Counted from the stretch's first letter, positions 2,678 through 55,200 are shown. The stretch is DNA of 64,000 nt from Lingula anatina (GCA_051362555.1 CM120646.1:18724001-18788000), one strand, 5' to 3'. Numbers and translations are program-made. The notes: generated by a model from the letters alone, not told the origin.

Positions 2678-2708
<31 letters not shown>

Positions 2709-4489: not shown

Positions 4490-4534
<45 letters not shown>

Positions 4535-5764
4535 AACCTTTATTTCAGTTGTAGCAGCAACTCTGACGGCCTTCTCTGCACACTCAGGCACTGTGATTAT
4601 ATACTGCACATGCGCAAGTTTCATTTGCTTTTCCAGTTCTTCTATTTATAGAAAAAATGGGTAAAGTTGCATTAAAACTCTTGTAGGCCTACGTTGTACC
4701 TAACGACAATACATGAATAGAATAAGTAAGAACCATGATGACAAACTGCCTTTCGCTGCATTATTTATTCAACGTGCATACAACCATGAATAAAGAACAG
4801 CTCTTTTGTGACCAGATGCATATTAAGCACGTTATCTCTATAACAGCATAAAAGATCTAAGACAAAAAAAAAAATTAAGCAAGTGTCAACCGTGCGCACT
4901 GAGTCTAACCTGCTGTGTACTGTGGGTTACAAGTGGTAACGATCCCACCCACAGCAAGAGTTCCCAGTAATACTAAGGGAAACTCCGGAACGTTCGGGCA
5001 ATATATACACAACACGTCTCCCTTTCGAAAACCCTTACGGGTGAGCGCGCTGCCGATGGATCTCACGTGGTTTCTGATGTCACCGTACGTATATTTGATG
5101 TCACTTTGGGTGTCGACCTGATAAAAGAAGATCGTGTTCAAATTCAAATGAAAAGTTAAACTGAAGGATATACATGTAACATCAGATTAGGGTTCATTTT
5201 AAAGTCGATACGGGTTTGATTACTTTCCCTTTCTCTCACTGAAACTATAATTCTGTACATCTCTTTCAATAAGTGAAAAAATAGATAAATTAACAAATAA
5301 ATAAATGAGCACATTTCCTGATTTTGATATGGCCCTTTGTGCTCTTTTAATACATTTTTAAAAAGTTTCGATCAAAGGAGTACAACGGTCTGAACACAAG
5401 ATGGTAAAGTAAATATATAAAATCACTACCGTACGGGTTACAGGGGTACGTACGTGTACGCCATCTCACGAAAATATCCTAGGTACGATATGATGTAGTA
5501 ACAAAACGGTGACTGCTTAACTACTGATATTCGAATAACTGCGCTCTCTTTCTCTCTCTTCCTCCCCTTCTCTCTCTCTCTAAGAATGTGTGTGTGTGCG
5601 TGCGTGTGTGTGCTCGCGCGCGCGAGAGAGAGAGAACGAGCGAGAGAGACAGCAACACTTACCACTGCTATAAAGTCTGCATATTTGTCAACATCAGCCA
5701 GCAGAAAGTCCGTTATGGAGACCCACGGTATACGAACATCGGGAAGACGACTCCGAATCCCCAT
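418..5764 (-). CDS. Firefly-luciferase-like / 4-coumarate-CoA-ligase-like peroxisomal acyl-CoA synthetase (ANL superfamily), about 11 coding exons
   Basis: Spliced exons give [10 protein letters not shown]..., [16 protein letters not shown] (AMP-binding motif, ~4070-4130), [21 protein letters not shown]|DIG...[14 protein letters not shown]|VAPAELE, and last exon ...[12 protein letters not shown]...KMKAKL* (TGA at 418-420). C-terminal AKL fits the PTS1 consensus. Confidence 0.92.
4283..4412. mobile_element. Short inverted-repeat element (MITE-like) in an acyl-CoA synthetase intron
   Basis: GGGCCCCGTAACTGGAAAGCATCGCATATTGCGA ... TCGCAATGCGCGGTGCTTTCGAGTTACGGGCCC form imperfect terminal inverted repeats. 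Confidence 0.55.
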
Positions 5765-18620: not shown

Positions 18621-20282
18621 CACTCTTGCCCAAAATGGTTGGTACACGGAAATTTTGGGATGCATATCGCCCTGTTTCTTTCATTATTATTGATATTACC
18701 AAATTAATACCGTTTATATTGTTAAATAGGTGAAGCTGGAGGGTTGGTTAAGTCAAGGAGAAACAACCAATGCAAATGTGAAAAAAACGTGAATTTATTT
18801 AGTTTTTTTTCTCAAGCCCCCATAAAGAGTACTTTTTTTTACATAACACTACCAAGTGAAAAATTAAACATAAATTTATACTGTGATGGACAATTAATAT
18901 GAAATTAGGGGAAATTGTCAAGAAACATCTTCAGAGTTCATTATTAATCTCAATAGCGGGTATGCCCACCCCGAGCTTGGATAATGGCCGCCAAACGGCG
19001 TGGCATACTGTGAACTAGAGTCACAACTCTTTGGAGAGGAATTCTGGTCCATTCATATTGAAGGGCATCTCGCAGTTCATCTATATTTGCAGGGGGAGGG
19101 TTTCTCCTCTGAATAGCACGACCAAGTTCGTCCCACATGTGCTCAATTGGGTTTGCATCTGGGCTTCTTGCTGGCTGTGGCATCAGCTGAATGTTGTTTT
19201 GTCGGATAAAGTCTGCAATTAAGCGGGCTGTGTGTTGAGTTGCATTGTCATGTTGCAATCTAAAATTGTCTCTGTATATCCCTCTTGCGAACGGCTCCAG
19301 GTTCTGCTGGAGAATGTCTCTATAACTGGCAGCGTTAAGGTTTTCACCCAGAGGAAGCAATGGGCAAATGCCGTTGCTGCAAATGGCACCCAAAACATGT
19401 ACAGAACCACCTCCTCCAGCTATGAGAGTGCGTAGGCTCCCTGGGGGGAGGCTGTTAACTGAAAATATCCAGGAAACAATAGCTGGAGGAGGTGGTTCTG
19501 TACATGTTTTGGGTGCCATTTGCAGCAATGGCATTTGCCCATTGGTTTTTCTGGATGAAAACCTTAACACTGCCAGTTATAGAGACATTCTCCAGCAGAA
19601 CCTGGAGCCGTTCGCAAGAGGGATATACAGAGACAATTTTAGATTGCAACATGACAATGCAACTCAACACACAGCCCGCTTAATTGCAGACTTTATCCGA
19701 CAAAACAACATTCAGCTGATGCCACAACCAGCAAGAAGCCCAGATGCAAACCCAATTGAGCACATGTGGGACGAACTTGGTCGTGCTATTCAGAGGAGAA
19801 ACCCTCCCCCTGCAAATCTAGATGAACTGCGAAATGCCCTTCAAGATGAATGGACCAGAATTCCTCTCCAAAGAGTTGTGACTCTAGTTCACAGTATGCC
19901 ACGCCGTTTGGCGGCCATTATCCAAGCTCGGGGTGGGCATACCCGCTATTGAGATTAATAATGAACTCTGAAGATGTTTCTTGACAATTTCCCCTAATTT
20001 CATATTAATTGTCCATCACAGTATAAATTTATGTTTAATTTTTCACTTGATAGTGTTATGTAAAAAAAGTACTCTTTTTGGGGGCATGAGAAAAAAAAAA
20101 CTAAATAAATTAACGTTTCTTTCACATTTGCATTGGTTGTTTCTCCTTGACTTAACCAACCCTCCAGCTTCACCTATTTAACAATATAAACGGTATTAAT
20201 TTGGTAATATCAATAATAATGAAAGAATCAGGGCGATATGCTTCCCAAAATTTCCGTGTACCAACCATTTTGGGCAAGAGTG
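18621..20282. mobile_element. Palindromic non-autonomous Tc1 (DD34E) derivative made of two inverted 3' halves
   Basis: TA|CACTCTTGCCCAAAATGGTTGGTACAC ... GTGTACCAACCATTTTGGGCAAGAGTG|TA. Arms 18621-19423 and 19479-20282 are reverse complements. Each encodes the C-terminal transposase part (QHDNA...SPDANPIEHMW...GGHTRY; 34 residues between D and E) but lacks the N-terminal DNA-binding domain and first Asp. Confidence 0.93.
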
Positions 20283-27843: not shown

Positions 27844-30271
27844 ATGGAACTGAAGATCGACTTAACCAAGCCTCCTGGAAGAGTTAAGTTGTGGGTGACA
27901 TTCTTTTCGTTAATTCTGTGTGCTGTATTTGTACTGAATGTTATTGCATACCTGCTGCCGGCTTATGATGAGAGGTGAGTATTTAAGTTTTTTTCAAAGG
28001 TAAACAAGCCTGAAATGCCATTTAAAAGTAGCTCAGTTCGTTTTATAATTTGCAACTGGTCTTTATTATGAATCTTTTCGTTCCTATATAGATCAATCTT
28101 GTCTGAGATCCGTTTAGCAAAAAAAAAAAAAAAAAGGGGGATGGGGGTAAATCCACGTTTTTGGTTTTTTTTCATGTAAATATTAATTAAAAATATGTAA
28201 CGTTGCTTGAATTCATCAATCTGAATATCGGACAAATATAAGATAAACGGTCAGCTAAGAAATTCCTTACTTTGTTGACTGCATTGGGTGTTACTCTGTC
28301 CATCAACTTTCTACACCTTTCAAGTTTGACAAAATAAGTTACTCGGTGTCGAGATCTCCCCATCAAACCAACCGTTCGCTACGGAAATTACCCTACTTTT
28401 ATATGCGGATTATAAATAGCTGTCATAAATTGTCGAGGCAGTTGTTAGTTTGTCAGATATTGTCTTTAAGAGTTGTTTTGTTGGTAAATAACAGCCATGA
28501 TTGAGTGAATAAGGAACAGGGTGTGTTTTGTAGAGGAACTGAGTTGATTTGCATGCTCTTATGATACTTATACAATGACGTGTAATGTAAACGGGAGAAT
28601 GCCGCTAGAGATTGTATGAGGTAGAGATAGAAATGAAAAGAAGGTGACACGGGGACCAATTGGAAAGTAGTTAATAAATAGTTCATGAAAGAATAGTTCA
28701 TGAAAAGAGTTGTATTTACAACCTCGCGTAACAGTAAAAGATAAAGACAACTTCGCCACAGAGTAAACAGTCCATTGTAATATGGAGTAATTTCAAGTGT
28801 AAGGTTATTATAAAATCACAGGGAAGCCATTTAAATAATTTTGTGATATCATTTTATAGTGCTTACACCCAGCATATCATTGACGTTTAGATCATTTGAT
28901 AGCTGCCAGAAATTATGCTTGAAATCGATATTGCAGCTTTTACTACGTCATCAAGTAAACAAATGCAACCCGGGCATTTTTGGATGCGGCAACATTATCG
29001 CATAACATATCGTATTAACATTTCCGCATTATCTAAACAGATTAGGAAAAAACAGATCAGACGTTAAGACCGACTAGATAAAACACCGAAAAAATAATGT
29101 GTCATCTGAATTGAATTTTAGGTCCCCAATAGGTTATAAAGGAGTCACCTACAATAAAAGACAACGTGTTCTTCAGCCAAGATACCGACGGGACGAATGG
29201 AACACATCCGGCACGCCCATACCATGCAACCAAAAGAAACACATCCTCTTCATCAAAGTTCCTAAGTGCGGGAGCTCCACCCTTTCCAGTATTATCATAA
29301 GATTCGGGTTTCGGCACGGCTTAAAAACAGCGCTTCCTTTGGGAAATAAGTTCAGTCTGGTTTCCTTGTTGAGGAGTCTGGACAAGAACGGCCATCAAAG
29401 TGATAAGCACGATGTATTTGCCAGCCATGTAAGATACCAGGTTATCAAAGAACACGAACACCTTGTACCAAACGATGCCTTTCGTACGGCAATTATTAGA
29501 GAACCATTGAGCGCCTTTAAGTCTTTTTTCAACTATCGCCAGAAGGGAGCAGCCTTTGGACTCGGAGCGAAAAATCAACTGGAAACGTTCTTTTCGAACT
29601 CTGCGTTCTACGCATCCCCCGATTCAGCTCGATTTTGGAACCGAATGATACGTTACCTTGGATACAACATGCCGGACAACACCACCCAGAGCACTCCTCA
29701 CGCAGTTGAGGAGGCCAGAACATATGTATACCATGTAGACCGAGAATTTGACTTTGTAGTAGTTTTGGAATATTTTGACGAATGTCTGATACTGCTTAAA
29801 AGAATGCTGTGCTGGGAAACGCACGACATGTTTTACACCCAACACAAAACTGGCTCTACTTATTCGAAGGATTATGATACCGCTATCAAAAAAGTCAGTG
29901 ACCCCTTGGTAGATAGAAGATTCAGGGAACTGAATTATGCAGACTATATACTCTACGACTATTTTAAGTCAAAGGTGGAAAAAACAATCGCCAAACAAGA
30001 TTCTGACTTCTTCAAAGAACTCCGCGATTTCAGGAGGGTGAATAGTAGAGTGACACAATTTTGTCAAAGTAGCACATCCCTTGAAGAATCATTGGAAATA
30101 CCATCGTCAAAATGGAGCAGAGGGTTCACCATGAGAAAGACGTACTGTCGTCTGCTGAATTTTGGTGTAAACAAATACGATACATTTCTGAAAAATGAAA
30201 AATTCACACAGTACATTAACGTTGGAAAAAATAGCGAACCTAGGCAACCCAGGCGTGACAAGTCGTCATAG
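27844..30271 (+). CDS. Galactose-3-O-sulfotransferase-like (GAL3ST family) Golgi type-II membrane sulfotransferase, 426 aa, 2 coding exons
   Basis: Exon 1 27844-27974 MELKIDLTKPPGRVKLWVTFFSLILCAVFVLNVIAYLLPAYDE (TM anchor, AG|gtgagt) splices in frame to 29122-30271. PAPS-binding motifs FIKVPKCGSSTL and IIREPLSAFKSFFNY; GAL3ST-type FDFVVVLEYFDECLILLKRMLCW and NYADYILYDYF. Confidence 0.9.
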
Positions 30272-37396: not shown

Positions 37397-40300
37397 TTAA
37401 GGAAATGATATCAATGTGTTCAGCAAGATAAGAGCAACAAGCATAGTGCTAATTAGGTCCAGATTCCCATCACTGGCCACTGGCGTGGTAGGCGGAGCGG
37501 AAGTGGTCGGTTTGGCGATTATGGCAGGGACGGTGTCTAACCAGAGGTCAATACGCTCTGGTATGACGTCAGTTTCATTGAGTATGACGTCACCGATGTC
37601 TAGATACGCCTCATCCGCATGCGTATAGCCTGGCCACGGGCTTGGGACTGCATCAGGGGTGTTAGGATTTCTGTAAAGGTACAAAAATTAACTATGATAA
37701 TTATTAATAATAATAATAATGGAAGATACTCATGTAATTACTGAGATTATAATAGCCTACCATTTTTTCTCACTGCGAATGTATATACTTCGTCTCTTGC
37801 CTGTAAATTTGGCTCATATACCTAAATTTGGTGACGTCACTTAACCTCGAATATACATGTTTAATTCAATAATGATAAAGTTATCTACAACGTATAGTTT
37901 GAAGGTTAAGCGTTGACACGTGCATTCAGACTTACCCAGTCTTTGCAAAATTCGCAAAGTAGGTCATAAAGGCTCTGGAAATATTCTTTTCTGCCTCGGT
38001 GAAATTAATATTGTTTATCAAAACATCAACTTCTAAGCCCAACATAAAGAGGAGATCGTCCCCGTGGTTTGCTCCCTCAAACCAGGCAGGTACAGGTACC
38101 AAATGCGGGAACGAGGGTTCCTTGGTGAAATAGAAAAGATAGGTGAAGCCACCTGGTGCCATGAGATGATATCTGAGGAAGCCAACTGTAGACACAGCAA
38201 AAAGGGTATCGGTGTAGTAGTTGACCATCAGACGTCCAGTCTCTGCCATGTCGGCACTTGCGTCGTAATAAAGTCCTCTAAGTCTCCGTGCTATTTCATC
38301 TTGGTGGTAGGAGGACACCTCCGCTGCAAACTGAGGGATTAAGGTATCCTTCATATAACTGGGCTGAACGCCAAGGGTGGTGTTAAAGGGTAGCACAAGA
38401 AGGTAGACTCCTGCATCAGAGTTCGTGAATCCGCCCATGTAGTCCAGAGACAAGAAGTTTCTCACCACGTCCGAGTTGCTATCCTTCAGCATTTCCAACA
38501 CAGTTAGAGGAAACATGTCGCCATCAACGACAGGACCAAATGGTGTTGTAACATGCCTAGGGAACACTTCCCGAGCTGACGCTTTGAGCAGGGCGGTCGC
38601 ATTGGCGTCGCGGAGACAAGCTGCCAACTTTGCCTTTTCTGAGGCTGCAGCATTACACCCAAGATTCTGTCCAACTTTGGTAGCAATATCGGCACCGTCT
38701 TTCACCCAGGCCGACTCGGTCAGCGCAGTGCCACTCATGGATATAAAGCGACGGAAGAGACCTCTAGCGGCTAATGTCATGGCTAATTGTGAGACACAAC
38801 TGCCACCTGCCGACTCACCGAAGATGGTCACACTTGAAATGACAATTTTGATATATGCTACAAGTGGACAACTATTACATAAAACTGTGTTAAACATTAA
38901 ACTCATCACTACTGGCAAATATTTCAAAGAATTTAACGAAGACATACAGTAAAACCCAATTAGTGGATCGAAAGTGAATTAGAACACACGTTACTTTGCC
39001 GACTCTTACTTCTCTTATTTGAAAACGCTTTTTGTATTTTTGGCGCTGAACAGCTTACCGGTTATATTTATATCAGTTTTCATTGATTTGAATTTGCTTA
39101 CCTTTTGAGACAAGTATTAAAAACATTTTAATTTTCTTAAAAAACCAAAACAGTAGCTATAATCAGAATGTTTTTTTATATGCATTAATCTAGATAATAT
39201 GTCCAAAAATGTGCCTACCATATAGAACCTGACGACATTGGTGCAGATAAAAAGTGTCTACCATTGACAGTTATTAAGCACTTACTTATTAGGGTCTCCG
39301 CCAAAGTTTTCTATGTTATCTCTCACCCACTTCAGTCCCTCTATTTGATCCCAGAGTCCAGCGTTACCAGGCGTGTTGACGTCACCAGTGGTCAAGAATC
39401 CAAATGCACCCAAGCGGTAGTTGACTGATACTACGATGACGTCACCTTGAATAGCTGAAAAGGAGGACCCAGTGCAGGTTTAAGAAAAATATTAAGACGG
39501 GTTGATTTTGCGTGGTGTGGTGCTGCATAACAAGAGACGCCTGGGCTCCGTATCTCGAAAGGTTCGCTATGTTGCGCACGAGCGTTAGTGTCTCGATTCC
39601 ATAACCGATTCTATTTCGAGATACGGGGCCATGGAATCGAGACACTAACGCACGTGCGCAACATAGCGAACCTTTCGAGATACGGAGCCCTGGTTTCACA
39701 TTCACAGAGTTTGAGCCAATAGAGGCTTTTCCACGGTCACGTGACTTCCGCTAAATTATCCGTGGGAACGCGAGATTTTGCGGGATTTGAAGTTTCAGGG
39801 GGAAAGTGTGGAGTGTACACGACGGACGCCATATCGAGGAGTGCTCATTTCAATCTGAATTTTCAAAGTTTCGTAACATGTTTGCACCTGATTTTTTTCG
39901 AAAACACATTCATGGGAGCAGTTGGAATAGAAAATTAGCAGAAGTACCTGATGACTTTTCAATGAAAGAACTAAAAACGTACCTAATCGACAGCAAAGAT
40001 AGGACATTCGGTACTTTTGTAGTATATCCCCCCCCCCCACCCTGTAACTTTCTGAATCCTTCATTTTTCAAACATTTTTTTTACAGTGTCTTTTGCACCT
40101 ATGTCAAAGCTGTTGAAATAAAATGTTTTTGTAATTACCTGTGGTCTTTTTATTAGTTTTAATCACGTTTAATCCACCCCATTGAAATACAATGTGAAAA
40201 TTTACAATGTAACCGCAGCTTGCTGCGTTTTCGTTGGCTAACTCTACCTTATTTTATGTGAACATAGGATTGATACATTGTATACTTAGATTTCCTCTGT

Positions 40301-41728
40301 GAAATTATTATGAGCTACTTGTTCACATAAAATTAGCTTAGAGTTAGCCAACGAAAATGCTGCAAATTATTGACTGCGGGTGTAAATTGAAGATTCTAAC
40401 TTTATATTTCAATGGGCTGGATTAAACGTGATTAACACTAATAAAAAGTCCACAGGTAATTACAAAAGCATTTTATTTCAACAGCTTTGATATAGATAAA
40501 CATTAAAATGTAAAAAACTGTTTGAAAAGTGAAAGTTACAAAAAGTTACAGGGTGGGGGTGGGGGGGGTATACTACAAAAGTACCGTAGGCCCCTTCTAC
40601 TCTTTCCCCCTGAGAAACAGTCCCGCACAAAATGGCGCGAACTGCGCATGCTCACGATTTCGTGGAAAAGACTCTATTAGTCACGCTAACCCTTTAAGTT
40701 ATAGAAATGTAACGGAAGACGGGTACCCTGTTACAAAAACCCTGAGTTCGCTGTCGTTTCTCGACACGGTCACAGTGACCCTTACCGAATTCATGAAAAT
40801 GGTACACGTTGGTCCCTCCGTTCATGAAGCCGCCGCCATGAATCCACACCATCACAGCCTTCCTGGTCGTGTTGCTCAAGGTGCCAGGAACGAACACGTT
40901 CAGGGTCAGGCAGTCCTCGGACATCTAGTGAAGAAATAGTCAGTGAATGCTCTGATTTATCCTGTGGTGTAATATTATATAGCAAGATTAAAAAACCAAT
41001 ACTGGGCTTATGAAATCATAAAATCATAATTTCAACAACAATTCAATGTTGCGATCGGTACCACTGATGTACAACAATTGCCGCATTTCCAACAGCGGAC
41101 TGTCTAGTCCGCGGATCAAATATGACCGACCCACTTGAATGCTTGTTCCGTAATTCCCACGGGGTATCTATTCACTGTCTATTAGGAAATTAGCTTTTAA
41201 GTGGACTAACTGGTCCGCGGATCAAATATGGCCGAGCCCACTTGAAAGCGATGCCGCATATCTCCCTAATGGTCTCCCATGGAAACAAACTAAATAAAGG
41301 TCCGTGGCCAGGGGGGTTTGGGGGTTCAAAAGACCCCCCCCCCTTTTTGCCGCTAAGTAAATTTATCTAGGTACGAGAAGATTTCATTGTAAAAGGTCCA
41401 CTTTTTCAGTAAAAAGCCCCCCTCCCGCGCTTTTTGAAATTGCTACGGACCTGAAGGTATTGGGAACCTCAGAGATAACGTTGACCAACGCGAAAGAAAA
41501 CGCTTGACCGCAGGCTATGGACCGGAAAATACCAAGAATCTGCAAGAATCTTTATTGCTACTGAAATTACGTGTAAGAAACTTATATAAAGGTGGTAAAA
41601 CATGGTGTATCGACACTGTTCATTGCGAGAATCACATACCATATCCATGTGATCTATATAAAGGCAGTATCTTTGCAATAAATAGATCCATGTTTGACAA
41701 AGTACACTTCTTTTCCCTCCATAAGATC

Positions 41729-41768
<40 letters not shown>

Positions 41769-42123
41769 CACACACACTTTCATTCAACCAAGCAATCATC
41801 CATTCTTCCCTCCTGCCCTTAATAATTACCTGAGTACCATGAGAAATTAACATTTCCTCCTGCATACACACTGCGCCATAGGCAGTCGTGTTCCTAATGC
41901 CAGTCCAGTTGGATACAGGCTGGGGTTTCATAAATCTGAGGCTTCCTACAGGTGGGTCACCGAAAGGAATACCAAGAAACAGATTGACAGGCTGTCCCTG
42001 GACTGTTTCCACAATTCCCTGTATTACACCATTCTTCGTGGTCACTTGGGGCTGGGATGACAGGAGAGAATTAAAGTATAATGCTAAGAATGCATTAACC
42101 GACTTCAAAAATGCTATCGCCAT
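37397..42123 (-). CDS. Carboxylesterase type B copy 5, 5 exons, intact
   Basis: [17 protein letters not shown] signal; [11 protein letters not shown]; WIHGGGF; GNAGLWDQ; GESAGG; GFTNSDA; GANHGDD; tail ...[27 protein letters not shown]. Confidence 0.92.
39541..39693. mobile_element. Palindromic MITE in an esterase 5 intron
   Basis: GGGCTCCGTATCTCGAAAGGTTCGCTATGTTGCGCACG ... CGTGCGCAACATAGCGAACCTTTCGAGATACGGAGCCC. Confidence 0.8.
39718..40678. mobile_element. ~960 bp foldback-like non-autonomous DNA element
   Basis: Ends AATAGAGGCTTTTCCACG ... CGTGGAAAAGACTCTATT; long internal inverted arms ~40009-40265 versus ~40320-40586. Confidence 0.7.
41297..41453. mobile_element. MITE family A, copy 3
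   Basis: AGGTCCGTGGCCAG ... GCTACGGACCTG; internal similarity to the copies at 13449 and 6279. Confidence 0.65.
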
Positions 42124-44156
42124 ATTACTGCGCTGTTCCGTTAGCGATAAGTTCTGTGTACTTAAACACTTGAATTACAAAACAAACATTTAGTGAAGAG
42201 CGTATTCTTCTCCTGCCATATTAAACAGGTGAATCAACTTAAGAATTCTTACCTCCACTAAGGAGGCTATTTTTTTTTTTTTTTTTTTTTTTGCCTTTGT
42301 TGGTTTGTTGGATAACTGCAAAACTCAAAACAATAAAAAGTTACGGACGGATATGGGTTTAATTAGGAAACTCATTATAAAGGATAAGGCCATCAAGAAA
42401 AGTTAGTACCGATTGATCTTTTCTCTCTTTTCAATTGAGATTAACGCATTAATACTAGAGTTTAAGGAGGCATAAAAAGGTTCATGCACTGATGTTAAGG
42501 CTAATCATCATATTCCATAAGCCTCGTTATCAGTTATTGCGTTTAATAATAAACAGAAAAATGTACACACATAGCACTGGTTGAAAACTACGAATATGTG
42601 CGCAACAAACACAATTAGAGCCGCGGCTGGAAGATGGACGATCTGTTCCTTGCGATTACCGTTACAGTCTTACCTTCGGTGAATCCTTCGGGTCGAAGTG
42701 GGAGGGGCACAAATCTGCCATTTTTGTTTCCAACGCCTAATATAATTGTTTTTACTTGATAATCGAGAGATCAAAGTGACGGAAGCGCGTGGATTGTAGG
42801 GTTTATATAAAAAATGTAGTTGAAAATACGCTGAGTAATGCTCTCCATACAGTAAAGAAAAGAATTAAATCACTTCCAAACTATCCAATATCAGATACGC
42901 CTGGGTATCAAATAGGGCATGGAAGTCCTCTCCGCTATGCAAAACTGAGATGGAGGTAAACAATTAAATGATACATAAAGCTGTTGATTGAAGAAATTTT
43001 CTTAAATCTTATAGTATTACACAGCTGGTGCAATGCGTCTCATAGCAGAAGTACCGTATACATGGCGTGCCTGTTGATGTAAAGGACCTAGTGCGCACCT
43101 GCACTGCGCCCCTGGTGGCACCACCCCCACCCCCCTCCTCCCCGGACTGTTTTCAAATATAATTTGATCAAAGATGAATCGAGCGTCATTATATCATTAT
43201 GAGCGATAAAACAAAAATCACACTTACATGATTCTTTTCAAATGTTTTACCCGCTATTATGCCTTTCTGTTTTCGTTGAAATTTTTGAACAGCAATTAAT
43301 GAAGCAATCTCGCCAAGTTTTTGTTTAAGATCAAACTAAACGCTATTCATAATTTTGTTTGGAATTAGGTACCTTTTGTTCATTTTGTTTTATAGAGATT
43401 GCTGCGGGTAGGTAGTGCTGACAGAGGAAAACATGCTATACTAAAAAATTGTACAGAATGCTTATTAAAAATGTTCTAAGAATAAAATATTTATTTGTAA
43501 TTCACTTAACTCAAGGCTGCCACCTTGACCATACAAACCTCCCGCCCATGGATGACTACTGCAACGGTCTATTCAGAAACGCCGTACTTTATGAAAACCA
43601 TGGGATCAAAACGGGAACTGTAGCCACAATCACCTAGGCCTACAGACTTTGAGTATTTGCAAGTTTATGTTCAGAAGCGGGAAAAGAAATATCATTACAA
43701 ACTACCTTGGAAATTTTGCATCTTATATTTTTTATTTAACATGGTTTTAATCGACCAGTACAATGCACCGGTACTACCGAAATACAATATAGTGATACAG
43801 GTATACCAAGTATATCTTGCAGTAGCACTGCTGTCGTTCATTGTGGTAAATTTATTCAACTGTTATTCTTAGTGTGATTGAGAACGAGCTCTGAATATAT
43901 ATCTATCCTCACGAAGACCAAAGTGCAGCGGCGGTAAAGAACATGATCCAAATGTATCCTTTTCTTTATAGATTATATCTTTGACCTGACCAAGTATGTC
44001 ATTATTTGAATTTTACACAATAGATTTGACTATGATTCTGGAAGTTCATTATTATGTTGTGTTTCATTACAATATTATATCGTAATTATAATATTACTGC
44101 CAAACTCGTAATACAGTGCATGGTGTCCGTTGCTATGGGGGCAGAAATGGAACCAT

Positions 44157-44952
44157 TTATTTTCCGGTAGGGTACAAGTATATCGAGCAATACGGGGTTT
44201 GGCTTTCTGGTTTCATACAAAAACCAAAGCATCCGGTGCCAGGGTAGGCAACACAATGACAGTCGTCATCGCTATCACAAGGCGGTTGGGATCCTGTTTG
44301 AATAGAACAATGACCACTTATTTTTGAGTTCAATATTACTAAGTCACATAGACTTGTAAAGATTCCTTTGTCTATAGTTATATACTTATATTTGTCTGGT
44401 CTTACCAGCCAATATTTCGTCACACCTATCACAACCTCATTCCCTGATGAAGTCTGGCGGCAAGCAGACGAAATATTGGCTGGTAAGTCCAGACAAATAT
44501 AAGTAGCTGTAGACAAAAGAATCTTCACAAGTCCATTACAATAACACAGCTCATGCAACTGTTATACACTGCAAAGTCACATGTCACTTCTGAAGATTAT
44601 TATAACTTTTTGATTTAAAGCAGTATCTGTAGATATTTAAAACGTACAAATTAATATAATATAATATAATATAATATAATATAATATAATATAAATCTGA
44701 CTACATTTGTGAGTGTATGGTGCATTTAAGCTACAGTCAGCGAAGGTTGCTCAAGGTTCTCAAAAACAAGAAAAAATGGAATACGCTCGGTTATTATTGT
44801 CACTTTTATTAGTTGAGAATATATTCTGAAATCTTTAACTCAAGTCGAGAGCAATTAATACCGTAATCAGGTAAATAGATCTAATTAAACCTACCTTCCA
44901 CTGTTTCGCAAAGCATTACCACGGATATCAAAAACAACAAAATGATCTTCAT
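44157..44952 (-). CDS. Small secreted 6-Cys peptide precursor, copy 1 (64 aa)
   Basis: Exon 44895-44952 MKIILLFLISVVMLCETVE-G|gtagg plus exon 44157-44293 (ttcaaacag|GA) gives MKIILLFLISVVMLCETVEG-SQPPCDSDDDCHCVAYPGTGCFGFCMKPESQTPYCSIYLYPTGK*; 58+137 nt, phase-1 intron. Confidence 0.85.
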
Positions 44953-46250
44953 TCTTGTCGCTAGTGAACAATTTAACCGAATCGTTAAACTCAAACTGCT
45001 CCGTTCAAGATAAAGAACTAACTAACGCACCTATCGTTACGTTCATATATTACGTCTCTCATGGAAAAACGATTAGATTGTATGTCCTTACCTCATTTGT
45101 TAGGAAGGACCAGTATGTTTAGTAAAAAAGAACGGAATTACATGAGAAACAAATGCGGCACGTAGATACCTCGGTTTCCGCCATTTCCATGATTGAGCTT
45201 GAGCAAAAATATATTGTACATTAGATTGCTTGGCTTTGCATCTTCAAGTTCTGATCCTTGTTTAAATGTGCTTTAAAACGATCTCGAGCTGAACGTTATA
45301 ATGATAAAATGGTTTTGCAGTCGTGGAAGAGAAAAAAAAAACAATGACGAAAATCAATTGTCTGGCGTATTTTCTCTTCACAACTGCTTTAGGTACGATC
45401 CGCTGACTTGTGCTGTTGTCTTTCCCCTTGTATACCTTGTATGTCGTTCAGAAATCCTAAGGCGAACGTAGCTGCCAGATCACGTTCGACAAAATAGTGA
45501 CCCAACAAGTTACGTTATATAACGTAACTTACTGTAACTGTATAATATCCATTAATGCAAAATGGGTGACTAGGCGGTGACAAAAAACCTATTACAATGA
45601 ATATTTGTCGTGGAAGCAGCTAATTCAATTGGTTAATTATGTAAGAAGAAATATACAATTTGCTCTGGTGCCCCCCTTCCTCCCAAGACTGTTTTCAAAT
45701 ATAATTTGTTCAAAGATGAACCGAACGCCATTATATCATTAGGAGCGATAAAACAAAAATCACACTTACATGATTCTTTTCAAATGTTTTGCCCGCTATT
45801 ATGCCTTTCTGTTTTCGTTGAAAAAATTTGAACAACAATTTATAAAGCAAACTCGACATGTTTTTGTTTGACATAAAACTAGACGCTACTCATAATTTTG
45901 TTTGAAATTTGCTACTTTTCTTCATTTTGTTTTATAGAGATTGCTGCGGGTAGGTAGTGCAGACAGATTAAGTTGGCGCAGAGAGAAAATATGACATAAT
46001 AGCAATAAAATTGTTCAGGTGCTGACATTGAAACATTAGTTATTTAAAATGCTTTGCACATAAAATATCAATTTGTCATTCACTTAACTCTACCTTAATA
46101 CTTTTTTAAATTTTTTACAGTATTCATGTCATTTACTATAACGTTTCAGAGACGGATATATTTGATCATTTTGCTGTGCATGGAAGTTATACATAGGTTA
46201 TAGCCACGTGGTCCAAAATTAGGGGTCTTTTGTGAAGTGTGAAAATAATT

Positions 46251-46418
46251 CAGCGGCGGATTTAGGGCGTCTTCTGGGTCTTCCGGAAGACGGTCATATT
46301 TTCAAGTTTACTTTGACGGGTATCTATTTTTTTGTTTTGGTAGACGGTCAGAAATTAGAAACGGATCAACAAAGATAATTAGGAAGACTGTCAGAAAATA
46401 TCTCTGGATCCGCCCCTG
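46251..46418. mobile_element. Short MITE (CAGCGGCGGAT ... ATCCGCCCCTG)
   Basis: Imperfect terminal inverted repeats with internal GAAGACGGTCA repeats. Confidence 0.5.
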
Positions 46419-47846
46419 AATTATTATCGACTGATGGTCGAGAAATAAGATTAAATTTTGTCCCGTGTGGAAATATGTCTATGCTCTCTGATCACAGGGG
46501 TCGGTACTAGCCTGATACAAAATAGCTGAAAAAACTCTTTTTCAATTTTTTTAACAGGCAGTATTAGAGACCATTAGATGATAAGAGGGATATATCTCTA
46601 CATGTACCACTTCTCATTGCCAATGCTTAACGTGGTGACGGAGAAACGAATTTTCATAAGGGCGAGTTAATACACGTTTATGCAATGGTTTTGATGCAAG
46701 AGTATAATGCATGCGTGTTGGTGTATAACTTCTGTTGGTTCAACACACACCGCCCTTGTGTTAAGCTGACATTCTCTGATCGATTGTTCCACCTATCATG
46801 GCGACAAAAGGTACACGGAAACGTATACCATGTATAATCCAAAATCAGACTTATTAGCTTTATAAAAAGGTAATACGTCCATACAAAAATCGCTTAGATC
46901 TTTTGCTTGTTCATTTTGTTTTTACTTGCTGTTGGATGTACGAGCGTGGAATGAAAGGAAATAAAAGTTTATTTCTGAATGAAGGTTGATATGATCACGG
47001 CTTCACTGCTTAAAAAACATGTATTTGATAAAACCTAGGCAACAATTATGAGGTGATATGCTTTGACAAAATATGGCGCACAATAGTAATATAGCGGTAC
47101 TATAGTAAAAAATACTAGTGTACTATACAAAGCAGATTATATGTCATATAACATATTTCAGTAGAAAGGGTGAATTTATTTTTTTGATCAGCATCTAGTT
47201 TTCAGTGACACTCCTATGGTCAAGGCTGCCATCTTGACCCAGCAAAGTTCCCGCCTCTGGTAGACTGCTGTTACGATCTATTCAGAAACGCTGCTCTTTA
47301 TGAAAACCATGGTAGGGATCAAAACACGAACTGTAGCCACAATCACCTAGGCCTACAGACTTTGAGTATTTGCAAGTTTATGTTCAGAAGCGGGCAAAGA
47401 AATCTCATTACAAACTACGTTGGAAATTTTGCATTTTATTTTTATTTAGCATGGTTTTAATCGACCCCTACAATGTACCGGTACAGCCGTAATATTATAC
47501 AGTGACACAGGTATACCAAGTATATCTTGCAGTAGCACTGCTGTCGTTCATAACGGTAGATTTATTCAACTGTTTTTCTTAGTGTGATTGCGAATGAACT
47601 CTGAATATACATCTATCCTCTAGAAGTGCAGCGGCGGTAAAGAACATGATCCAAATGTACCCATTGTTATATAGATGATATCTTTGACCTGACCAAGTAT
47701 GTCACTATTTGAATTTTGTTCAACATCTGTGACATTGATTCTGAGATCGAGAGTTCATTAACCAGGGTTTGTGTTACATAACAATATTGTATCGTTATTA
47801 AAATATTACTCGTAGTCCGTTGCTATGGGGGCCGAAATTGAACCAT

Positions 47847-49508
47847 TTAACCTTGAATAGTGTGCGAGTATCTCCAGCAATACGGGGTTCGGCCTTCTGG
47901 TTTGATACAAATGCCAGTGCATGTGGTGCCAGGGTAGGGAACACAATGGCAGTCGTCATTGCTATCACATGGTGGTTGGGATCCTGTTTGAATAGAGCAT
48001 TGACCACTTATTTTGGGGGTCACATTACAAAGTCACAAATACTTATCCGCATTGTCACTTTTGCAGTTTTTATTATATTTTGTTTTGTAGCAGTGTATGT
48101 GGATTTTTAAAAAATATGTATTAATTAATGATATAAATTTGACTACATTTGTGAGGGTATGATGTGTTTAAACTACAGTTAATGAAGATTGCTCAAGGTT
48201 CTCAAAAACAAGCAAAAGAAAAACAGGAATACATGTACACTAGACCAAACATGCTTCTGTCAACAAACTCTGGAAGTTTTAAAAGATAACATATAGGCAA
48301 TATATGCGTGATGCTAAAGTGCCATTTTAGCTACTGAATAATACATAAAGAATCATTGGCTCCCAGCAATTGACGACTTACCACCACCTATCCATGGGCT
48401 CCTTGACAGTATTCCGCCTGAAATGATAAGTTGTATAAAACGCCAGCTCTCAAAAAAGAATTACTGCCTGATGTTAGCGTTATTCTGTGTCAAAGGTGAC
48501 ACGTGTGATTTCCCTAAAAAACGTAATAAATCTTAAGTAAGGCTTTAATATTCCTAGGACTTATTACTGCCTGATGTTAGCGTTATTCTGTGTCAAAGGT
48601 GACACGTGTGATTTCCCTAAAAAACGTAATAAATCTTAAGTAAGGCTTTAATATTCCTAGGACTTATTACTGCCTGATGTTAGCGTTATTCTGTGTCAAA
48701 GGTGACACGTGTGATTTCCCTAAAAAACGTAATAAATCTTAAGTAAGGCTTTAATATTCCTAGGACTTATTACTGCCTGATGTTAGCGTTATTCTGTGTC
48801 AAAGGTGACACGTGTGATTTCCCTAAAAAACGTAATAAATCTTAAGTAAGGCTTTAATATTCCTAGGACTTATTACTGCCTGATGTTAGCGTTATTCTGT
48901 GTCAAAGGTGACACGTGTGATTTCCCTAAAAAACGTAATAAATCTTAAGTAAGGCTTTAATATTCCTAGGACTTATTACTGCCTGATGTTAGCGTTATTC
49001 TGTGTCAAAGGTGACACGTGTGATTTCCCTAAAAAACGTAATAAAACTTAAGTAATGCTTTAATATTCCTAGGACTTATTACTGCCTGATGTTAGCGTTA
49101 TTCTGTGTCAAAGGTGACACGTGTGATTTCCCTAAAAAACGTAATAAATCTTAAGTAAGGCTTTAATATTCCTAGGACTTATTTCAGAAAGCCACTTGAA
49201 ACATAAATGCTGCTCGACAGGCTGCACTCATGGCAACAACATCTGTAAAAGGACATGAATGACAAAAGCAGGGAACCGTCACCCAACCGTGTGTACCCTT
49301 AGCTAACAGTGGCATTATACATGTACGCTCGGTTTTTATTATCACTTTTATTTGTTAAGAAATCATTTTACGCCAGTAATTTTCTTATTTTTCATTAACT
49401 CAAGTCGATTTGAATACTGTAATCAGTTAAATACATCTAATATAACCTACCTTCCACTGTTTCGCAAAGCATTACCATGGAAATCAAAAACAACAAAATG
49501 ATCTTCAT
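47847..49508 (-). CDS. Small secreted 6-Cys peptide precursor, copy 2 (64 aa)
   Basis: Exons 49451-49508 and 47847-47983: MKIILLFLISMVMLCETVEG-SQPPCDSNDDCHCVPYPGTTCTGICIKPEGRTPYCWRYSHTIQG*. Confidence 0.85.
48461..49181. repeat. Tandem array, 7 x 103 bp
   Basis: Unit TTACTGCCTGATGTTAGCG...TTCCTAGGACTTA starts at 48461, 48564, 48667, 48770, 48873, 48976 and 49079; unit 6 has two substitutions; no spacers. Confidence 0.97.
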
Positions 49509-50196
49509 TCTTGTCGCTAGTGAACAATTTAACCGAATCGATAAACTCAAAGTGCTCCGTTCAAGGTAAAGAACTGACAAACACACCGATCGTTCACATA
49601 CGTTCATATATTAACGGCTCTCATGTAAAAAACGAACAGATTATATGTCCTTACCACTTTTGATAGGAAGAACCGGTATGTTTAGTGAAAAAAGAACGGA
49701 ATCTGCCAGAGAGCACATGAGAAACAAAGGCGGCACGTAGATACCTCGTTTTCCGCGATTTCCATGGTTGAGCTTGAGCAAAAATATATTATACATTAGA
49801 TTGTTTGGCTTCGCATCTTCATCTGGTTATCATGCAACCCTGAATCTGACTCTGGGAACCTAGTACTGCTGACGTTCATTTTGGTAAATTTATTCAACTG
49901 TTATTCTCAGTGTGACTGAAAACGAGCTCTGAATATACATCTATCCACACAAAGTGTAGCGGCGGTAAAGAACATGATTCAAATCTACCCATTTCTATAT
50001 AGATGATATCTTTGACCTGACCAAGTATGTCACTGTTTAAATTTTGCACAATTGATTTGACTATGATTCTGACAGTTCATTATCCAGGGCTTGTGTTACA
50101 TAACAATATTGTATCGTAAAATATTACTGCCAATCTCGTAATATGGTGTCCGTTGCCTTGGGGGGAGGGGGGGGGGCGAAATGGAACCATTTAGCC

Positions 50197-50982
50197 TTAG
50201 GTAGGGTACAAGTATCTCCAGCAATACGGGGTTTGGCCTTCTTGTTTGACACAAACGCCATAACATCCAGTGCCGGGGTAAGCAACACAATGGCAATCGT
50301 CATTGCTATCACAAGGTGGTTGGGATCCTGTTTGAATAGAACAATGACCACTTATTTTTGGGTTCAATATTACTAAGTCACATAGACTTGTAAAGATTCT
50401 TTTGTCTGTAGTTACTTACATTTGCCTGGTCTTACCAATATTTCGTCACACCTATCACAACCTCATTCCCTGATGAAGTCTGCATGCAAGCAGACGAAAT
50501 ATTGGCTGGTAAGACCAGACAAATATAAGTAGCTATAGACAAAAGAATCTTCACAAGTCTATTACAATAACATAGCTAATGAAGCTGCTCTACACTACAA
50601 AGTCACATATTATTATCCGTATTGTCACTTTTGAAGATTATTATTATAACTTTTCGTTTTGTACCAGTGTATGTAGATATTTTAAACGTATTAATTAATA
50701 TTATAAATCTGACTACATTTGTGAGGGTATGATGCGTTTAAACTACAGTCAGTGAAGGCTGCTCAAAAACAAGCAAAAAAAAAGGAATACGCTCGGTTAT
50801 TATTGTCACTTTTCTTAGGTATAAATGTTATAACGCCAGTCAATCTCTTATCTTTCTAAAATCATTAACTCAAGTCGATTGCAATTAATACCGTAATCAG
50901 GTATATAGATCTAATATAACCTACCTTCCGCTATTTCGCAAAGCATTACCACGGATATCAAAAACAGCAAGATGATCTTCAT
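50197..50982 (-). CDS. Small secreted 6-Cys peptide precursor, copy 3 (62 aa)
   Basis: Exons 50925-50982 and 50197-50327: MKIILLFLISVVMLCEIAEG-SQPPCDSNDDCHCVAYPGTGCYGVCVKQEGQTPYCWRYLYPT*. Confidence 0.85.
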
Positions 50983-52263
50983 TCTTGTCGCTAGTACATG
51001 TAACAATTTAACCGAATCGTTAAACTCAAAGTGCTCCGTTGAAGGTAAAGGACTGAAAAACACACATATCCATATATTAACGGCTCTCATGGAAAAAAAC
51101 GAACAGATTGTATGCCCCTACCGCGTTTGTTAGGAAGTACCAGTACCAGTATGTTTAATCAAAAAGAACGGAATCTGTCAGAGAGCACATGAGAAACAAA
51201 GGCGACCCGTAGATACATTGGTTTCCGCAATTTCCATGACTGAGCTTGACCAAAAATATATATTGTACATTATATTGCTTGGCTTCGCATCTTCATCTGG
51301 TTATAATGCTAAACTGAGGCTGACTCTGGGAACCAAGTTCTGGTCCTTGTTTCAGTGTGCTTTAAAAACGATCTCGAGCTGAATGTTGTAAAGATAAAAT
51401 GGTTTTTGTAGTCGTGGAAGAGCGAGAAAAAAAATACTGACGAAAATCAATTGTCTGGCGCTTTTTCTCTTCACCCCTGCTTAAGGTATGATTTGCTGCC
51501 TTGTGCTGTTGTCTTTCCCATTGGATACCTTGTACACTATGTCGTTGAGAAATCCTAGGACCAACGTAGCTTCCAGATCAAGTTAACGAAATAGTGACCC
51601 AATAAGTTACGTTATATAGCGTCCGTTATACTGTATAATATTCATCAATACAAAAAGGGAGACTAGGCGGTGACAAAAAAAAAAACTCCTTACAACGAAC
51701 ATTAGTCCTGGAAACAGCTAATGCAACTGATCATTTATGTAAGGAGACAGATGTATGGAAAGAAACAAAACAGTTCCTGTACAAAAGCCTTACATATGGC
51801 TCTCTATTGGAAACAATCATGTCAGGTCACTGCAGTTTGTAAGCTCACCATCAGCTGAAACAATTCCAGTATTATCTCAGGTATCTTAATTTACTATAAT
51901 TATTCTTATCATTTTTCAAAAGTGCTAATGTTTTCTACCGTATGGTGCAAGTATTTTTTCTCGTTTCATTTTCACTCTATTTTATTCTATTTTACTCTAC
52001 TTTTTACAGATTAATATTTTAGAAACCAGTCATGACAACGATCGTTTGATTCTATCGTTTGATTCTATCGAGTGCCATCTCAACAACCTGCTTGTTGCAG
52101 ACATTTATGCTAAATATTGTTTGCATTATGGCAAAGGTGGAATGGCCAACATGGACCTGGAAATTTGCCCATCTCAGTATTTATTTATGTCCAGCGCCTT
52201 TAGTGTTTGGTTTGTGTTCGAAAACAAAAATCAGAAAAGCCTATACGTTTGTATCATGTGCAT

Positions 52264-55200
52264 TTATCCAAACGATGAACTCGATATCGTTCCGTTGAGT
52301 AGGTCGACTAGCGTGGCATTGTTTACCAGGCAGGGGTCGTGCGGAAGGCGAGGTCCGAGCCAATCGTCTAAGCCGTACGCCATGACACTTCCGGTTGTCA
52401 GACCAATGCTGTAGGTAAGCGTCATCATATTTCCTGAAATGACAGTTTTTTTTCTTCATGGTTTCTAATGTGATAGTACGTCTTTCGTTTAGGCACACGC
52501 GAACAATATGAACCAAGTCGAACTTGACAGGTACGAATGCACACATACATGTACATGTACATACGTGTCGGAGATGTGACAAGAACTACGATATATTTTT
52601 TGATAAAGAACAAGATACTTAAAATAGCATTCACGCAACCAAATACTTGATGCCCAGTCCGTTCGCCCGATAGTGGAAAAATCATGCCACAATGTCGAAC
52701 GAACGAACAAAAAGAGGTTTGTGAAGGTTATGTTATGTTATATGTTATACAGAGGCGCATTTTACCTGTAAGCTCCTTTTGTTCATCTGGCACCTTGGTG
52801 GAGGCTAATATCATAGGGACACTGCCAAAGTAACCGTTGGTCACCCCTAGAATCAATGATATTAGCATGGCCCACCCTTCACCGTTCAGTATTGGTCCTA
52901 GACGGGGCGTGGCACACATCATCATGAGCGGAATCAACAGCACACGGAGGATTGAACAGGCCAGGAGACGACGAGGGGGCCAATCGTAGGGCAATGACGC
53001 TATGATCTTAAAGAATATGAAGACTATTTTAGAGTTGATTACTAGAGTTACTTCTAGATGAAATGTAGATATTTGATTGAACAAAATGGCAGCGCTTACA
53101 AATGAATATATTCTGTAGCTCTATATGCATTCAAAGTAATCGCTTGTATAAAACTTCAGTTTATTCATTTATACTGTAGATTAGTTCCCTTTAATGTGGC
53201 GGTTTGTTACACACAGAAGGAACATATATATTAATTTGCCAAAATCAACGCCACAGTCTTGTAACTCATATAAAACTTCGATTTTACGTGGTGAGACACG
53301 TTTGAATAATATACCCCGATACTGTGTTAAAGACAATTTCCATTCTCTCAATGATTGTGAGTAACATAACAACTTTGAAATTGGCCCAAAGCTACCTTGC
53401 CAATGAAGTCCGAGGCATTGAATATGGCCATCAGGACTACAGGCATCCAGCTCCCCAACCTACAACTCAGGATCTCTGACTCAATGCCCGGGAACAGGCA
53501 TAACGTCACGAAGTACGCAAACGCAATGGACATCATGTAAGGCCACGTGGTCCGGGAGGCACGTTTCCGCAGCACCACGCCGTCTGGATGGAAAAAGTCA
53601 AACGTGGATTTGAGTGAGAAACGCTATTTCCTTTGGCAGTGTTAAAGGGGCTTCGCGACAGAATACTGAGAAAACGTGATCGAAACATGCAGTATTAAAA
53701 CATATACGGTATATTAACACTATATCGTTATATTTCACGCTGCAATTAGAAAATAGTGACTTAATTCTGACTAATGCTGCAGAATACTGCAAGTACGTGT
53801 ACACTTCAATTAAAAAGAAATAGACTTATATTTTCTCACGTTTGATGGCGGCCCATATGGTTGTAGGTCTCCTGACTGTCCAGGGTTCAGACTTGATTCT
53901 GACGTCATCAGCAATACTATGACGTGAAGATGACGACGACACAGCGTGTCTAGGTTGATCGTCATGCTCGATGACCAGAACCCCATAGTTTCCTTGGTTA
54001 GTTGTATGGTCCACTATTTCAACCTGTATTATATCATAATTAGAGGTCGTAATAAGAAGTTAATTGCCAAGCAAAACCCGCTTTAAATTTAAACGTCTTC
54101 GATTCCATCTTAAAAAGAATGCTTCGTCGACAGGTGAGCCCAACTACGGACCCAGTCGTTGCCGCGAAAATTCTTTACTTATCGTCTGCAATCACTCACT
54201 TTCAAATGTGAAAATAAACTATCATAACAGGCGTTATTAAAATCAATGTGAATGTTAATGATATTTTCTCTAGTGAATCCAGGATTTTGCCATTTTTAGG
54301 GGGGGGCATAAAATATTTTACACAGCGAAGCAAGGCTAATATGTAATAAAAGACTACGGCAATTTTACTGTTATATGTCGGGCATAGGGACAGATGATTG
54401 CTTGGTTTTAACTCTTTTTATCTAAATATACCGTATTTTTTTCCCGGTGAGAGCGGGGGGGATGTTACATATAGATGGGGGTATCTCCGATTCTAAAGGG
54501 GGTGGTACTTGTCCCAATATACTGTCTTCATCCACCATTGATTTTGCACCACTAAACATGGGCCTTCTCTGAGTACCATACCTCTTCTTGCATCACGGTC
54601 TGATTAGAAAATCCCACTTTATCGTCTGGTTTGCCAGCTGTACGACATATATTCTCGTAGAATCTCGCAAATTCCGTCCTGCGGATTAGGTTGAAGATGA
54701 CAAAGCACGCGAATACGGTCACAACGGAGATGCAGAAAAAGATCATGGTGTTGACCTTTTCATCATTAAGAAGAGCTTTCGTCACAATACGGTTTGCTGA
54801 CACCAAAAGGCCTGCTGCACCTGGAAAATAATCATTGCACTGCATTAAACATAACACTCAGTTTTAACACTGAAGGGCAGGCATCTTTTGCACATTGTTG
54901 GTTGAACGTTGTCTGAACAACAGTAGCCGGTTTCTCAAAAGCACATAGCCCGAAATTTGGTTTTAATCCACATATAGGGTAAATTGTAATACGAACAACA
55001 AAATATGTTGTTTTGTGTAATGCAAATTTGAAAAAAAATTCATTGTGGACTCATTAATGAATTTATATGACTTTATCACCATCATCTTCTATCAATATGT
55101 GATTATAGTGTGAAACGCTCCTCCAGATATCTACATTGGCGGATCAAAATCATTTATTCGTTCATTTTTTGTAAGATGTGTCCTAGAAATGAAAAGCTTA

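Follow-up and report, generated by a model that had tools for sequence, protein, structure and literature searches.

An unnamed family of three tandem micro-genes for six-cysteine peptides with a predicted hairpin fold in Lingula anatina

Introduction

Few effector peptides have been described from brachiopods, and genes of such small size are missed by annotation. A 64,000-nucleotide stretch of the Lingula anatina genome (GCA_051362555.1, CM120646.1:18724001-18788000; referred to here as the window, in whose coordinates all positions are given) contains three small two-exon genes in tandem on the minus strand, each of which appears to encode a signal peptide followed by a short cysteine-rich peptide. 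We asked whether these genes are real, whether their products belong to a described family, and what the peptides might do. Our data indicate that the three micro-genes are real and under selection and that they form an unnamed family of a familiar kind, with a function that is putative.

Results and Discussion

Three intact paralogues

The initial annotation described three tandem copies, each with a 58-nt signal-peptide exon, a phase-1 intron, and an exon encoding a mature peptide of 42-44 residues with a six-Cys framework. Both coordinates and sequences match this description, and a check of the sequence agrees that the ATG, splice sites, reading frame, and all six Cys are intact in every copy (Table 1). 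The signal exons all begin with ATG and share the consensus MKIILLFLIS[VM]VMLCE[IT][AV]E, with a best 11-residue hydropathy of 3.2-3.4. All introns are phase 1 and GT-AG, with lengths of 597 (copy 1), 1467 (copy 2), and 601 nt (copy 3); the intron of copy 2 is longer because a tandem repeat supplies most of the extra length. In all copies the donor reads AAG/GTAGGT and the acceptor TTCAAACAG/GA (the slash marks the splice site), the junction codon is Gly, and by eye the acceptor is no weaker than the four read-supported acceptors of the neighboring ENT4 gene. The mature peptides all carry Cys at positions 5, 11, 13, 21, 25, and 35 (C-x5-C-x-C-x7-C-x3-C-x9-C), an exact framework with three occurrences across all six reading frames of the window and none in 30 base-shuffled windows. 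Each of the three copies has an AATAAA at the corresponding position, approximately 300 nt 3' of the stop.

Signal cleavage is predicted by eye, with the -3/-1 rule, after Gly20 (Ala/Val-Glu-Gly, then Ser), where the residues at -3 and -1 are small and follow a hydrophobic core. A terminal Gly or Gly-Lys before the stop is an amidation-type signal, and copies 2 and 3 would thus be amidated at the C-terminus. The peptides are acidic, with isoelectric points (pI) of 4.7 (copy 1), 6.0 (copy 2), and 4.4 (copy 3) and a net negative charge (two to three Lys+Arg vs four to five Asp+Glu per peptide). Competing open frames were rejected: a 134-aa frame at 44561-44160 that runs into exon 2 of copy 3 is closed in the other copies and crosses a miniature inverted-repeat transposable element (MITE), and antisense frames over the peptide exons were likewise discarded.

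The genes lie in duplicated units of approximately 1.9-2.6 kb with 79-83% identity. Identity between copies is 83-87% in the mature exon and 87-92% in the 300-nt flanks. Since this divergence far exceeds the heterozygosity of the species, given as 1.6% in the available text of PMC4595640, the copies are paralogues and a haplotype artefact was ruled out. No fourth copy was found within the window.

Selection on the coding exons

Three-way alignments contain no indel event in 195 coding nucleotides compared with 20 in 660 gap-free flank columns. The number expected in the exons is 5.9 (P about 0.003, which is somewhat generous since in-frame indels would be tolerated). Substitutions among the three copies comprise 13 synonymous and 23 non-synonymous changes (omega, the ratio of non-synonymous to synonymous rates, 0.46; binomial p = 0.025), with two synonymous and no non-synonymous changes in the Cys codons. 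The scarcity of indels together with the synonymous excess therefore indicates that the reading frame and the scaffold have been kept by selection. When the peptide is split at a point picked after viewing the data, omega is 0.05 for residues 1-13 and 0.92 for residues 14-42, with drift or diversification over the C-terminal two-thirds. The copies have diverged by 0.19-0.34 at synonymous sites of the mature exon, yet all three are free of indels and retain the ATG, the splice sites, and every Cys.

Search for relatives

The framework had been left without a family name, and the searches run here returned no confident match to a described family. In protein collections of 5.8 billion, we found no candidate homologue among proteins of 23-77 aa and five candidates among proteins of 78-2000 aa, none at an expectation value (E) up to 10. 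A set of 1.84 billion representatives yielded two matches with E up to 0.001, both of which were rejected on inspection as repetitive proteins without the Cys framework. PDB sequences gave no match to a single-copy or a profile query, none of 91 pattern matches in metagenome contigs was confirmed, and Rfam had no match across window positions 42000-53000. The sole Pfam match was a sub-threshold one to Albumin_I in one of three copies (residues 2-28, E 0.0016, 18.5 bits against a cut-off of 27). The nearest atlas neighbors, namely hirudin, cyclotide, and spider toxins, scored 0.76-0.84 (best 0.84 and 0.82; recognition under 2300), which is the level reached by shuffled sequences, i.e., chance. 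We found no account of the family in the literature searched, although a 2018 survey of Lingula immune genes (Gerdol et al., Dev Comp Immunol) could cover it. A search for short peptide motifs in PMC8557429, PMC4595640, and PMC13425148, limited to a single supplement file per paper, gave no match. Libraries that include neighboring Lingula genes yielded none of the three products. With no relative in the protein libraries, the products therefore appear to be unannotated.

Predicted fold and disulfide pattern

Two AlphaFold runs on the three-sequence alignment gave predicted local distance difference test (pLDDT) values of 85.6 and 88.9. Both models contain a 3-10 turn at residues 8-10 and a hairpin at 19-26/34-41, the second adds a strand bridge at residue 4, and neither has a helix of four or more residues. 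The prediction thus shows the disulfide-directed hairpin feature, a C-terminal antiparallel hairpin after a short 3-10 turn. Foldseek ranked the first cysteine-rich domain (CRD1) of Dkk4 (5o57) first and second, with E of 2.4 and 3.4, neither of which is significant. With VIA-align, the copy 2 model aligned best to Tst2 (Z 3.1, root-mean-square deviation (rmsd) 2.6 Å, 33 aligned residues) and Tbo-IT2 (2.8, 1.9 Å, 33), and the other model to Tst2 (2.7, 3.0 Å, 33). Small venom-type or cystine-dense peptides made up 9 of the 45 rows obtained with the copy 2 model, and the other model gave a comparable picture; plant defensins appeared only at Z 2.2-2.5. Such fold-search scores alone prove nothing, and the residue-level map onto Dkk4 is the stronger argument.

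According to the available part of PMC6078440, C41-x5-C47 of the Dkk4 N-subdomain encloses a 3-10 helix at 44-46, and C53-x9-C63 goes with strands at 52-54 and 62-64; the disulfides are C41-C53 and C47-C63. On this partial account, the first element maps to Cys5-x5-Cys11 with the turn at 8-10 and the second to Cys25-x9-Cys35 with residues 24-26 and 34-36, and Dkk4 Ser43, Asp44, Asp46, Phe52, and Pro61 correspond to Ser7, Asp8, Asp10, Phe24, and Pro33 of copy 3. Ser-Asp-x-Asp-Cys and Pro-aromatic-Cys motifs are common to Dkk4 and the peptides. From this mapping we infer an unknotted core with C1-C5 (5-25) and C2-C6 (11-35) bonds; a cross-strand Cys25-Cys35 bond is also possible. If C1-C5 and C2-C6 are paired as in Dkk4, Cys13 and Cys21 would be left to close a seven-residue loop. 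The initial annotation was reminded of disulfide-directed hairpins by the start of the peptide, and the AlphaFold models, Foldseek, and the Dkk4 map all support that lead.

If Cys25 faces Cys35, even-numbered hairpin positions would face away from the disulfide core. This face holds four to five aromatic residues out of eight in each copy, compared with none out of eight on the Cys face. In hairpin strand 1, all four outward positions vary and none of the four inward positions does (p = 0.014). A variable aromatic face on an acidic scaffold that is itself frozen would give these peptides the look of small binding proteins.

A putative role and its alternatives

We hypothesize that the three intact Lingula paralogues make secreted, unknotted hairpin peptides of 42-44 residues that bind a foreign protein in defense, a reading we favor tentatively and to which we give somewhat less than an even chance. 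Under this hypothesis, the signal peptide would be removed after Gly20, with amidation of copies 2 and 3, and the mature peptide would fold as a disulfide-directed hairpin with its 3-10 turn at residues 8-10. C1-C5 and C2-C6 would lock the core, C3-C4 would staple the seven-residue loop, and the variable aromatic face opposite the Cys would serve as the binding surface for a microbe, parasite, or predator protein (an enzyme or a receptor). Expression would be confined to a tissue, stage, or challenge outside the RNA runs sampled. Tandem duplication, lineage restriction, and low bulk expression have a mussel precedent in the six-Cys family MgCRP-I (PMC4558851). A fuller version of this proposal, which we regard as doubtful, is that the peptides represent a new stand-alone miniprotein scaffold, acidic and amidated, with a knottin-type hairpin core, a third disulfide rewired from a knot to a stapled side loop (C1-C5, C2-C6, C3-C4), and a long aromatic face, and constitute the first brachiopod family of peptide deterrents or enzyme inhibitors.

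Several of our results weigh against the defense hypothesis. The RNA data comprise eight of nine same-species runs (all but X9), of which 6-26% each was read (approximately 85 million reads in total), from other individuals that possibly lack the locus and from unstated tissues. No read joins exon 1 to exon 2 in any of the eight, and the mature exons have next to no depth (at most 0.06 in exon 2 of copy 1), while neighboring ENT4 gives four spliced joints at approximately 1-2x depth, with little or nothing in runs X4 and X5. An omega near 1 in the variable part, from three sequences only, suits relaxed constraint equally well with diversifying selection, and variability by face over both hairpin strands is not significant (p = 0.16). 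Foldseek returned no match at E up to 0.001 in the PDB or in viral structures, VIA-align none at Z of 5 or more (maximum 3.1), and Dkk4 when realigned stays under Z 2. The proposed target, a foreign protein, is putative. In the available text of PMC4558851, synthetic peptides of MgCRP-I, a lineage-restricted six-Cys family of Mytilus with very low expression and no known function, had no antimicrobial, cytotoxic, or insecticidal activity. Because these synthetic peptides lacked such activity, likeness to a family of this kind is no proof of defense.

The remaining RNA signal is sparse. Both exons of copy 2 have a depth of 0 in all eight runs. Exon 2 of copy 3 has its coverage bin in common with a read-attracting MITE, and its 3' flank has a depth of 0. 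About one sense read pair of run X6 falls in the bin containing exon 1 of copy 3, and runs X5 and X6 have a depth of 0.5-1.0 in the bin of copy 1 exon 1, which may be the 3' untranslated region (UTR) of ENT4. No expressed close paralogue was detected among the RNA reads at 85% likeness. Since 1 read per kilobase per million (RPKM) predicts roughly 5-7 reads per run, the peptide genes lie below approximately 1 RPKM in the sampled RNA. With low depth and unstated tissues, the null result neither confirms nor refutes the genes, and it argues against constitutive abundance in those samples. The initial annotation named a lack of spliced transcripts as refuting, and this outcome was obtained in all eight partly read runs, although it is not decisive. 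Its view of the peptides as lineage-specific three-disulfide effectors holds insofar as the family is lineage-restricted, unnamed, secreted, and selected, but a constitutively abundant effector can no longer be argued for in these samples. The conserved upstream donor it reported is present as donor-like sites in the three copies (GT at 51121, 49654, and 45091; AG at 51053, 49574, and 45018), but the 5'UTR exon it proposed is supported by no read of the eight runs and is unconfirmed.

A very low or absent bulk RNA signal would also suit endogenous signaling ligands, hormone- or neuropeptide-like or Dkk-like modulators, that are made by few cells and have the same predicted fold. Amidation-type endings in two of three copies and a best structural lead in a subdomain of a Wnt modulator point the same way, and brachiopods have knottin-like CCWamide/agatoxin-like neuropeptides (available text of PMC8557429). 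However, such peptides usually have relatives across phyla and none was found for the Lingula family, the products are not CCWamide, the single supplement file searched for that brachiopod neuropeptidomics paper lacks the motifs, and the exposed face is free to vary between copies; a signaling role is therefore unlikely. The lack of spliced reads in eight of eight runs and of an annotated protein in any library, omega near 0.9 over residues 14-42, and the missing terminal Gly of copy 1 would be consistent with young copies that have fallen silent or begun to decay, with an intactness that reflects past selection and recent duplication. We consider this quite unlikely given a synonymous divergence that has left every copy undamaged and a poly(A)-type signal retained in all three.

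Aromatic faces on small disulfide-rich peptides such as tachystatins and hevein bind chitin, and the aromatic face and acidic DS[DN]DD turn of the Lingula peptides would be compatible with matrix peptides of the chitin-phosphate shell or chaetae, the face stacking on chitin and the Asp-rich turn binding calcium. This is improbable, as Lingula shell matrix proteins include no secreted acidic proteins in the available text of PMC4595640, and no motif match was obtained in two shell-proteome supplements (one file per paper, which may contain no sequences). Matrix proteins would also be expected to be abundant in mantle RNA, although the tissues of the runs are unstated. Lingula feeds by filtering and is not known to have a venom apparatus. 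Classical membrane-active antimicrobial defensins or true venom knottins would account for the size, the six Cys, the signal exon with a phase-1 intron, and a weak resemblance in features and fold to knottins, cyclotides, and plant defensins. Against this very improbable reading stand the net negative charge, a spacing outside the inhibitor cystine knot (ICK) consensus, the absence of an alpha-helix from either model, and atlas scores at the level of shuffled sequences. The earlier label of toxin/defensin-like needs narrowing on account of the acidic pI (4.4-6.0), the ICK spacing, and the missing defensin helix. We retain defensive binding of a foreign protein as the preferred, tentative explanation.

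Genomic setting

The three genes lie between the ENT4 stop (approximately 52264) and a tandem carboxylesterase array. The upstream neighbor has a first exon that matches an ENT4-like nucleoside transporter of Lingula anatina with 99% identity, compared with 56-61% for the next best match. In runs X1 and X6, coverage on the ENT4 strand extends approximately 1.1 kb past the stop (52264), to approximately 51100, and the ENT4 3'UTR therefore likely reaches into the upstream part of the copy 1 unit; the copy 1 upstream donor-like site sits where this coverage stops. ATTAAA is found at 51159 in copy 1 only, with ACTAAA in the other copies. The 3'UTR stretch at 51100-52264 was likely duplicated along with the peptide genes.

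Table 1. Features of the peptide-gene locus, in window coordinates
Feature	Position	Strand	Remarks
Copy 1 duplication unit	49861..51747	-	aligns with 43823-45649 (copy 3), 79% over 1967 columns
Copy 1 signal-peptide exon	50925..50982	-	58 nt, 19 codons + 1 nt, phase-1 donor; best 11-residue hydropathy 3.4
Copy 1 mature exon	50197..50327	-	42 aa, six Cys, stops two codons before the others, no terminal Gly
Copy 1 AATAAA, candidate poly(A) signal	49889..49894	-	from alignment, no read support
Possible short 5'UTR intron, unconfirmed	51053..51121	-	equivalents 49654-49574, 45091-45018
Palindromic MITE-like element	50382..50562	.	copy 1 intron; also copy 3 (44348-44536); not found in copy 2
Copy 2 duplication unit	47220..49868	-	blocks 47220-48044 and 49324-49868 align with other copies, 80-83%
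Copy 2 signal-peptide exon	49451..49508	-	58 nt
Copy 2 mature exon	47847..47983	-	44 aa, ends Gln-Gly-stop (amidation-type)
Copy 2 AATAAA, candidate poly(A) signal	47561..47566	-	from alignment
7 x 103-bp tandem repeat	48460..49183	.	inside copy 2 intron
Copy 3 duplication unit	43511..45649	-	43823-45649 aligns with the copy 1 unit
Copy 3 signal-peptide exon	44895..44952	-	58 nt
Copy 3 mature exon	44157..44293	-	44 aa, ends Thr-Gly-Lys-stop (amidation-type)
Copy 3 AATAAA, candidate poly(A) signal	43851..43856	-	from alignment

Around the copies, a 297-nt block at 43130-43425 recurs at 45672-45967 with 90% identity, i.e., downstream and upstream of copy 3; the downstream version has no peptide exons behind it and may mark a unit boundary or the remains of an additional duplication. 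At 51218-51798, two X4 reads jump over approximately 580 nt with ends that are not splice-type, which suggests that another individual carries a deletion allele immediately upstream of copy 1. A short interspersed repeat at 46250-46420, between copies 2 and 3, attracts hundreds to thousands of foreign RNA reads in all eight runs, and the MITE-like element of the copy 1 and copy 3 introns also draws reads from other loci.

The tandem array at 8000-42200 on the minus strand holds at least five carboxylesterase/cholinesterase-family genes, whose first exons are signal-like and whose hydrophobic C-terminal tails resemble membrane anchors. A role for the peptides as inhibitors of these adjoining enzymes was considered, with adjacency as its sole argument. 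Inside the array, on the opposite strand, is a 397-codon open frame of the galactose-3-O-sulfotransferase family (29078-30268, plus strand), and a fragment that shares its N-terminal stretch is found at 26746-26366 on the minus strand. At 39997-40598, in an esterase intron or spacer, there is a palindromic MITE-like element of approximately 600 nt with long inverted arms. Two near-identical 208-codon open frames on opposite strands overlap head-to-head at 18953-19949; they resemble Tc1/mariner transposase C-termini and presumably represent an inverted duplication of a transposon fragment. By eye, exons at 729-5186 (minus strand) presumably belong to an acyl-CoA ligase or luciferase-like adenylate-forming enzyme.

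Comparison with known systems

Dkk4 CRD1 has ten Cys in two subdomains of a larger protein, whereas the Lingula module stands alone, and the loop between the second and third core Cys has 13 residues and an extra Cys pair in Lingula compared with five residues in Dkk4. Membership in the Dickkopf family, which has a ten-Cys CRD1 and a colipase-type CRD2 (available part of PMC6078440), was rejected since the peptides have six Cys followed by a stop and no Dkk Pfam match at E up to 10. Convergence is as likely an origin of the Dkk4 likeness as kinship.

The ICK consensus is C-x3-7-C-x3-8-C-x0-7-C-x1-4-C-x4-13-C in the accessible text of PMC4942781, and the Lingula spacing of 5, 1, 7, 3, 9 falls outside it because the second loop has one residue rather than three to eight. 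A possible likeness to knottins, below significance, comes from VIA-align rows that cover model residues 2-41/42 (Z 2.5-3.1, rmsd 1.9-3.2 Å, 33 aligned). Tst2 (8SEM), Tbo-IT2 (7AY8), Magi4 (2ROO), and pea albumin 1b (Pfam Albumin_I) are knottins. Compared with these, the Dkk4 mapping suggests that the knot-forming first Cys would be missing and that the third bond would close a local loop; the Lingula peptides are also acidic and have no pro-region.

Other small disulfide-rich folds fit less well. The WAP four-disulfide core has eight Cys (Pfam PF00095), and with six Cys and no WAP match in any of the three copies, the WAP-type start suggested initially finds no support. In CS-alpha-beta defensins, an alpha-helical CxxxC is tied to a CxC on a later strand; in the Lingula peptides CxC precedes CxxxC, CxxxC lies on a strand, and the models have no helix of four or more residues. 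A Bowman-Birk loop has C-x7-C with Thr at P2, Ser at P1', and Pro at P3', and the Lingula C-x7-C loop, V[AP]YPGT[GT], fits at none of the three defining positions.

Among lineage-restricted families, MgCRP-I is similar in being duplicated, secreted, six-Cys, and very lowly expressed in a non-venomous filter feeder, with a phase-1 intron at the end of the signal region, a conserved leader, and a variable mature part. It differs in having a CC doublet, a pro-region with a dibasic site, four exons, a basic pI, and 1-2/3-4/5-6 connectivity (available text of PMC4558851). Membership was rejected as the Lingula peptides have no CC, no pro-region, and a pI below neutral. CCWamide/agatoxin-like membership was likewise rejected: in the accessible text of PMC8557429, those peptides have eight Cys rather than six, a pro-peptide with a basic cleavage site (absent from the Lingula products), three exons, an amidated aromatic C-terminus, and conservation across protostomes. 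The SA8 peptides of sea anemones have a measured C1-C5, C2-C6, C3-C4 connectivity (available text of PMC10210398), which is the pattern suggested for the Lingula peptides. According to the same partial source, SA8 differs in its ShK-like Cys spacing, FA dyad, 3-5 microexons, and partial disorder in nuclear magnetic resonance, and we found no sequence link; the Lingula peptides have no FA dyad and two coding exons, and membership was rejected.

If the disulfide map is true, the Lingula peptides would be a natural unknotted variant of the knottin/hairpin core. They would then bear on how the cystine knot relates to the two-disulfide hairpin and would offer a small and stable scaffold for easy synthesis and testing. 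Lineage-restricted cysteine-rich peptide families are common in invertebrates. On the features tested, the Lingula family lies outside ICK, Dkk, WAP, CS-alpha-beta, MgCRP-I, CCWamide, and SA8, and its models would have it act like a small disulfide-stabilized hairpin binder.

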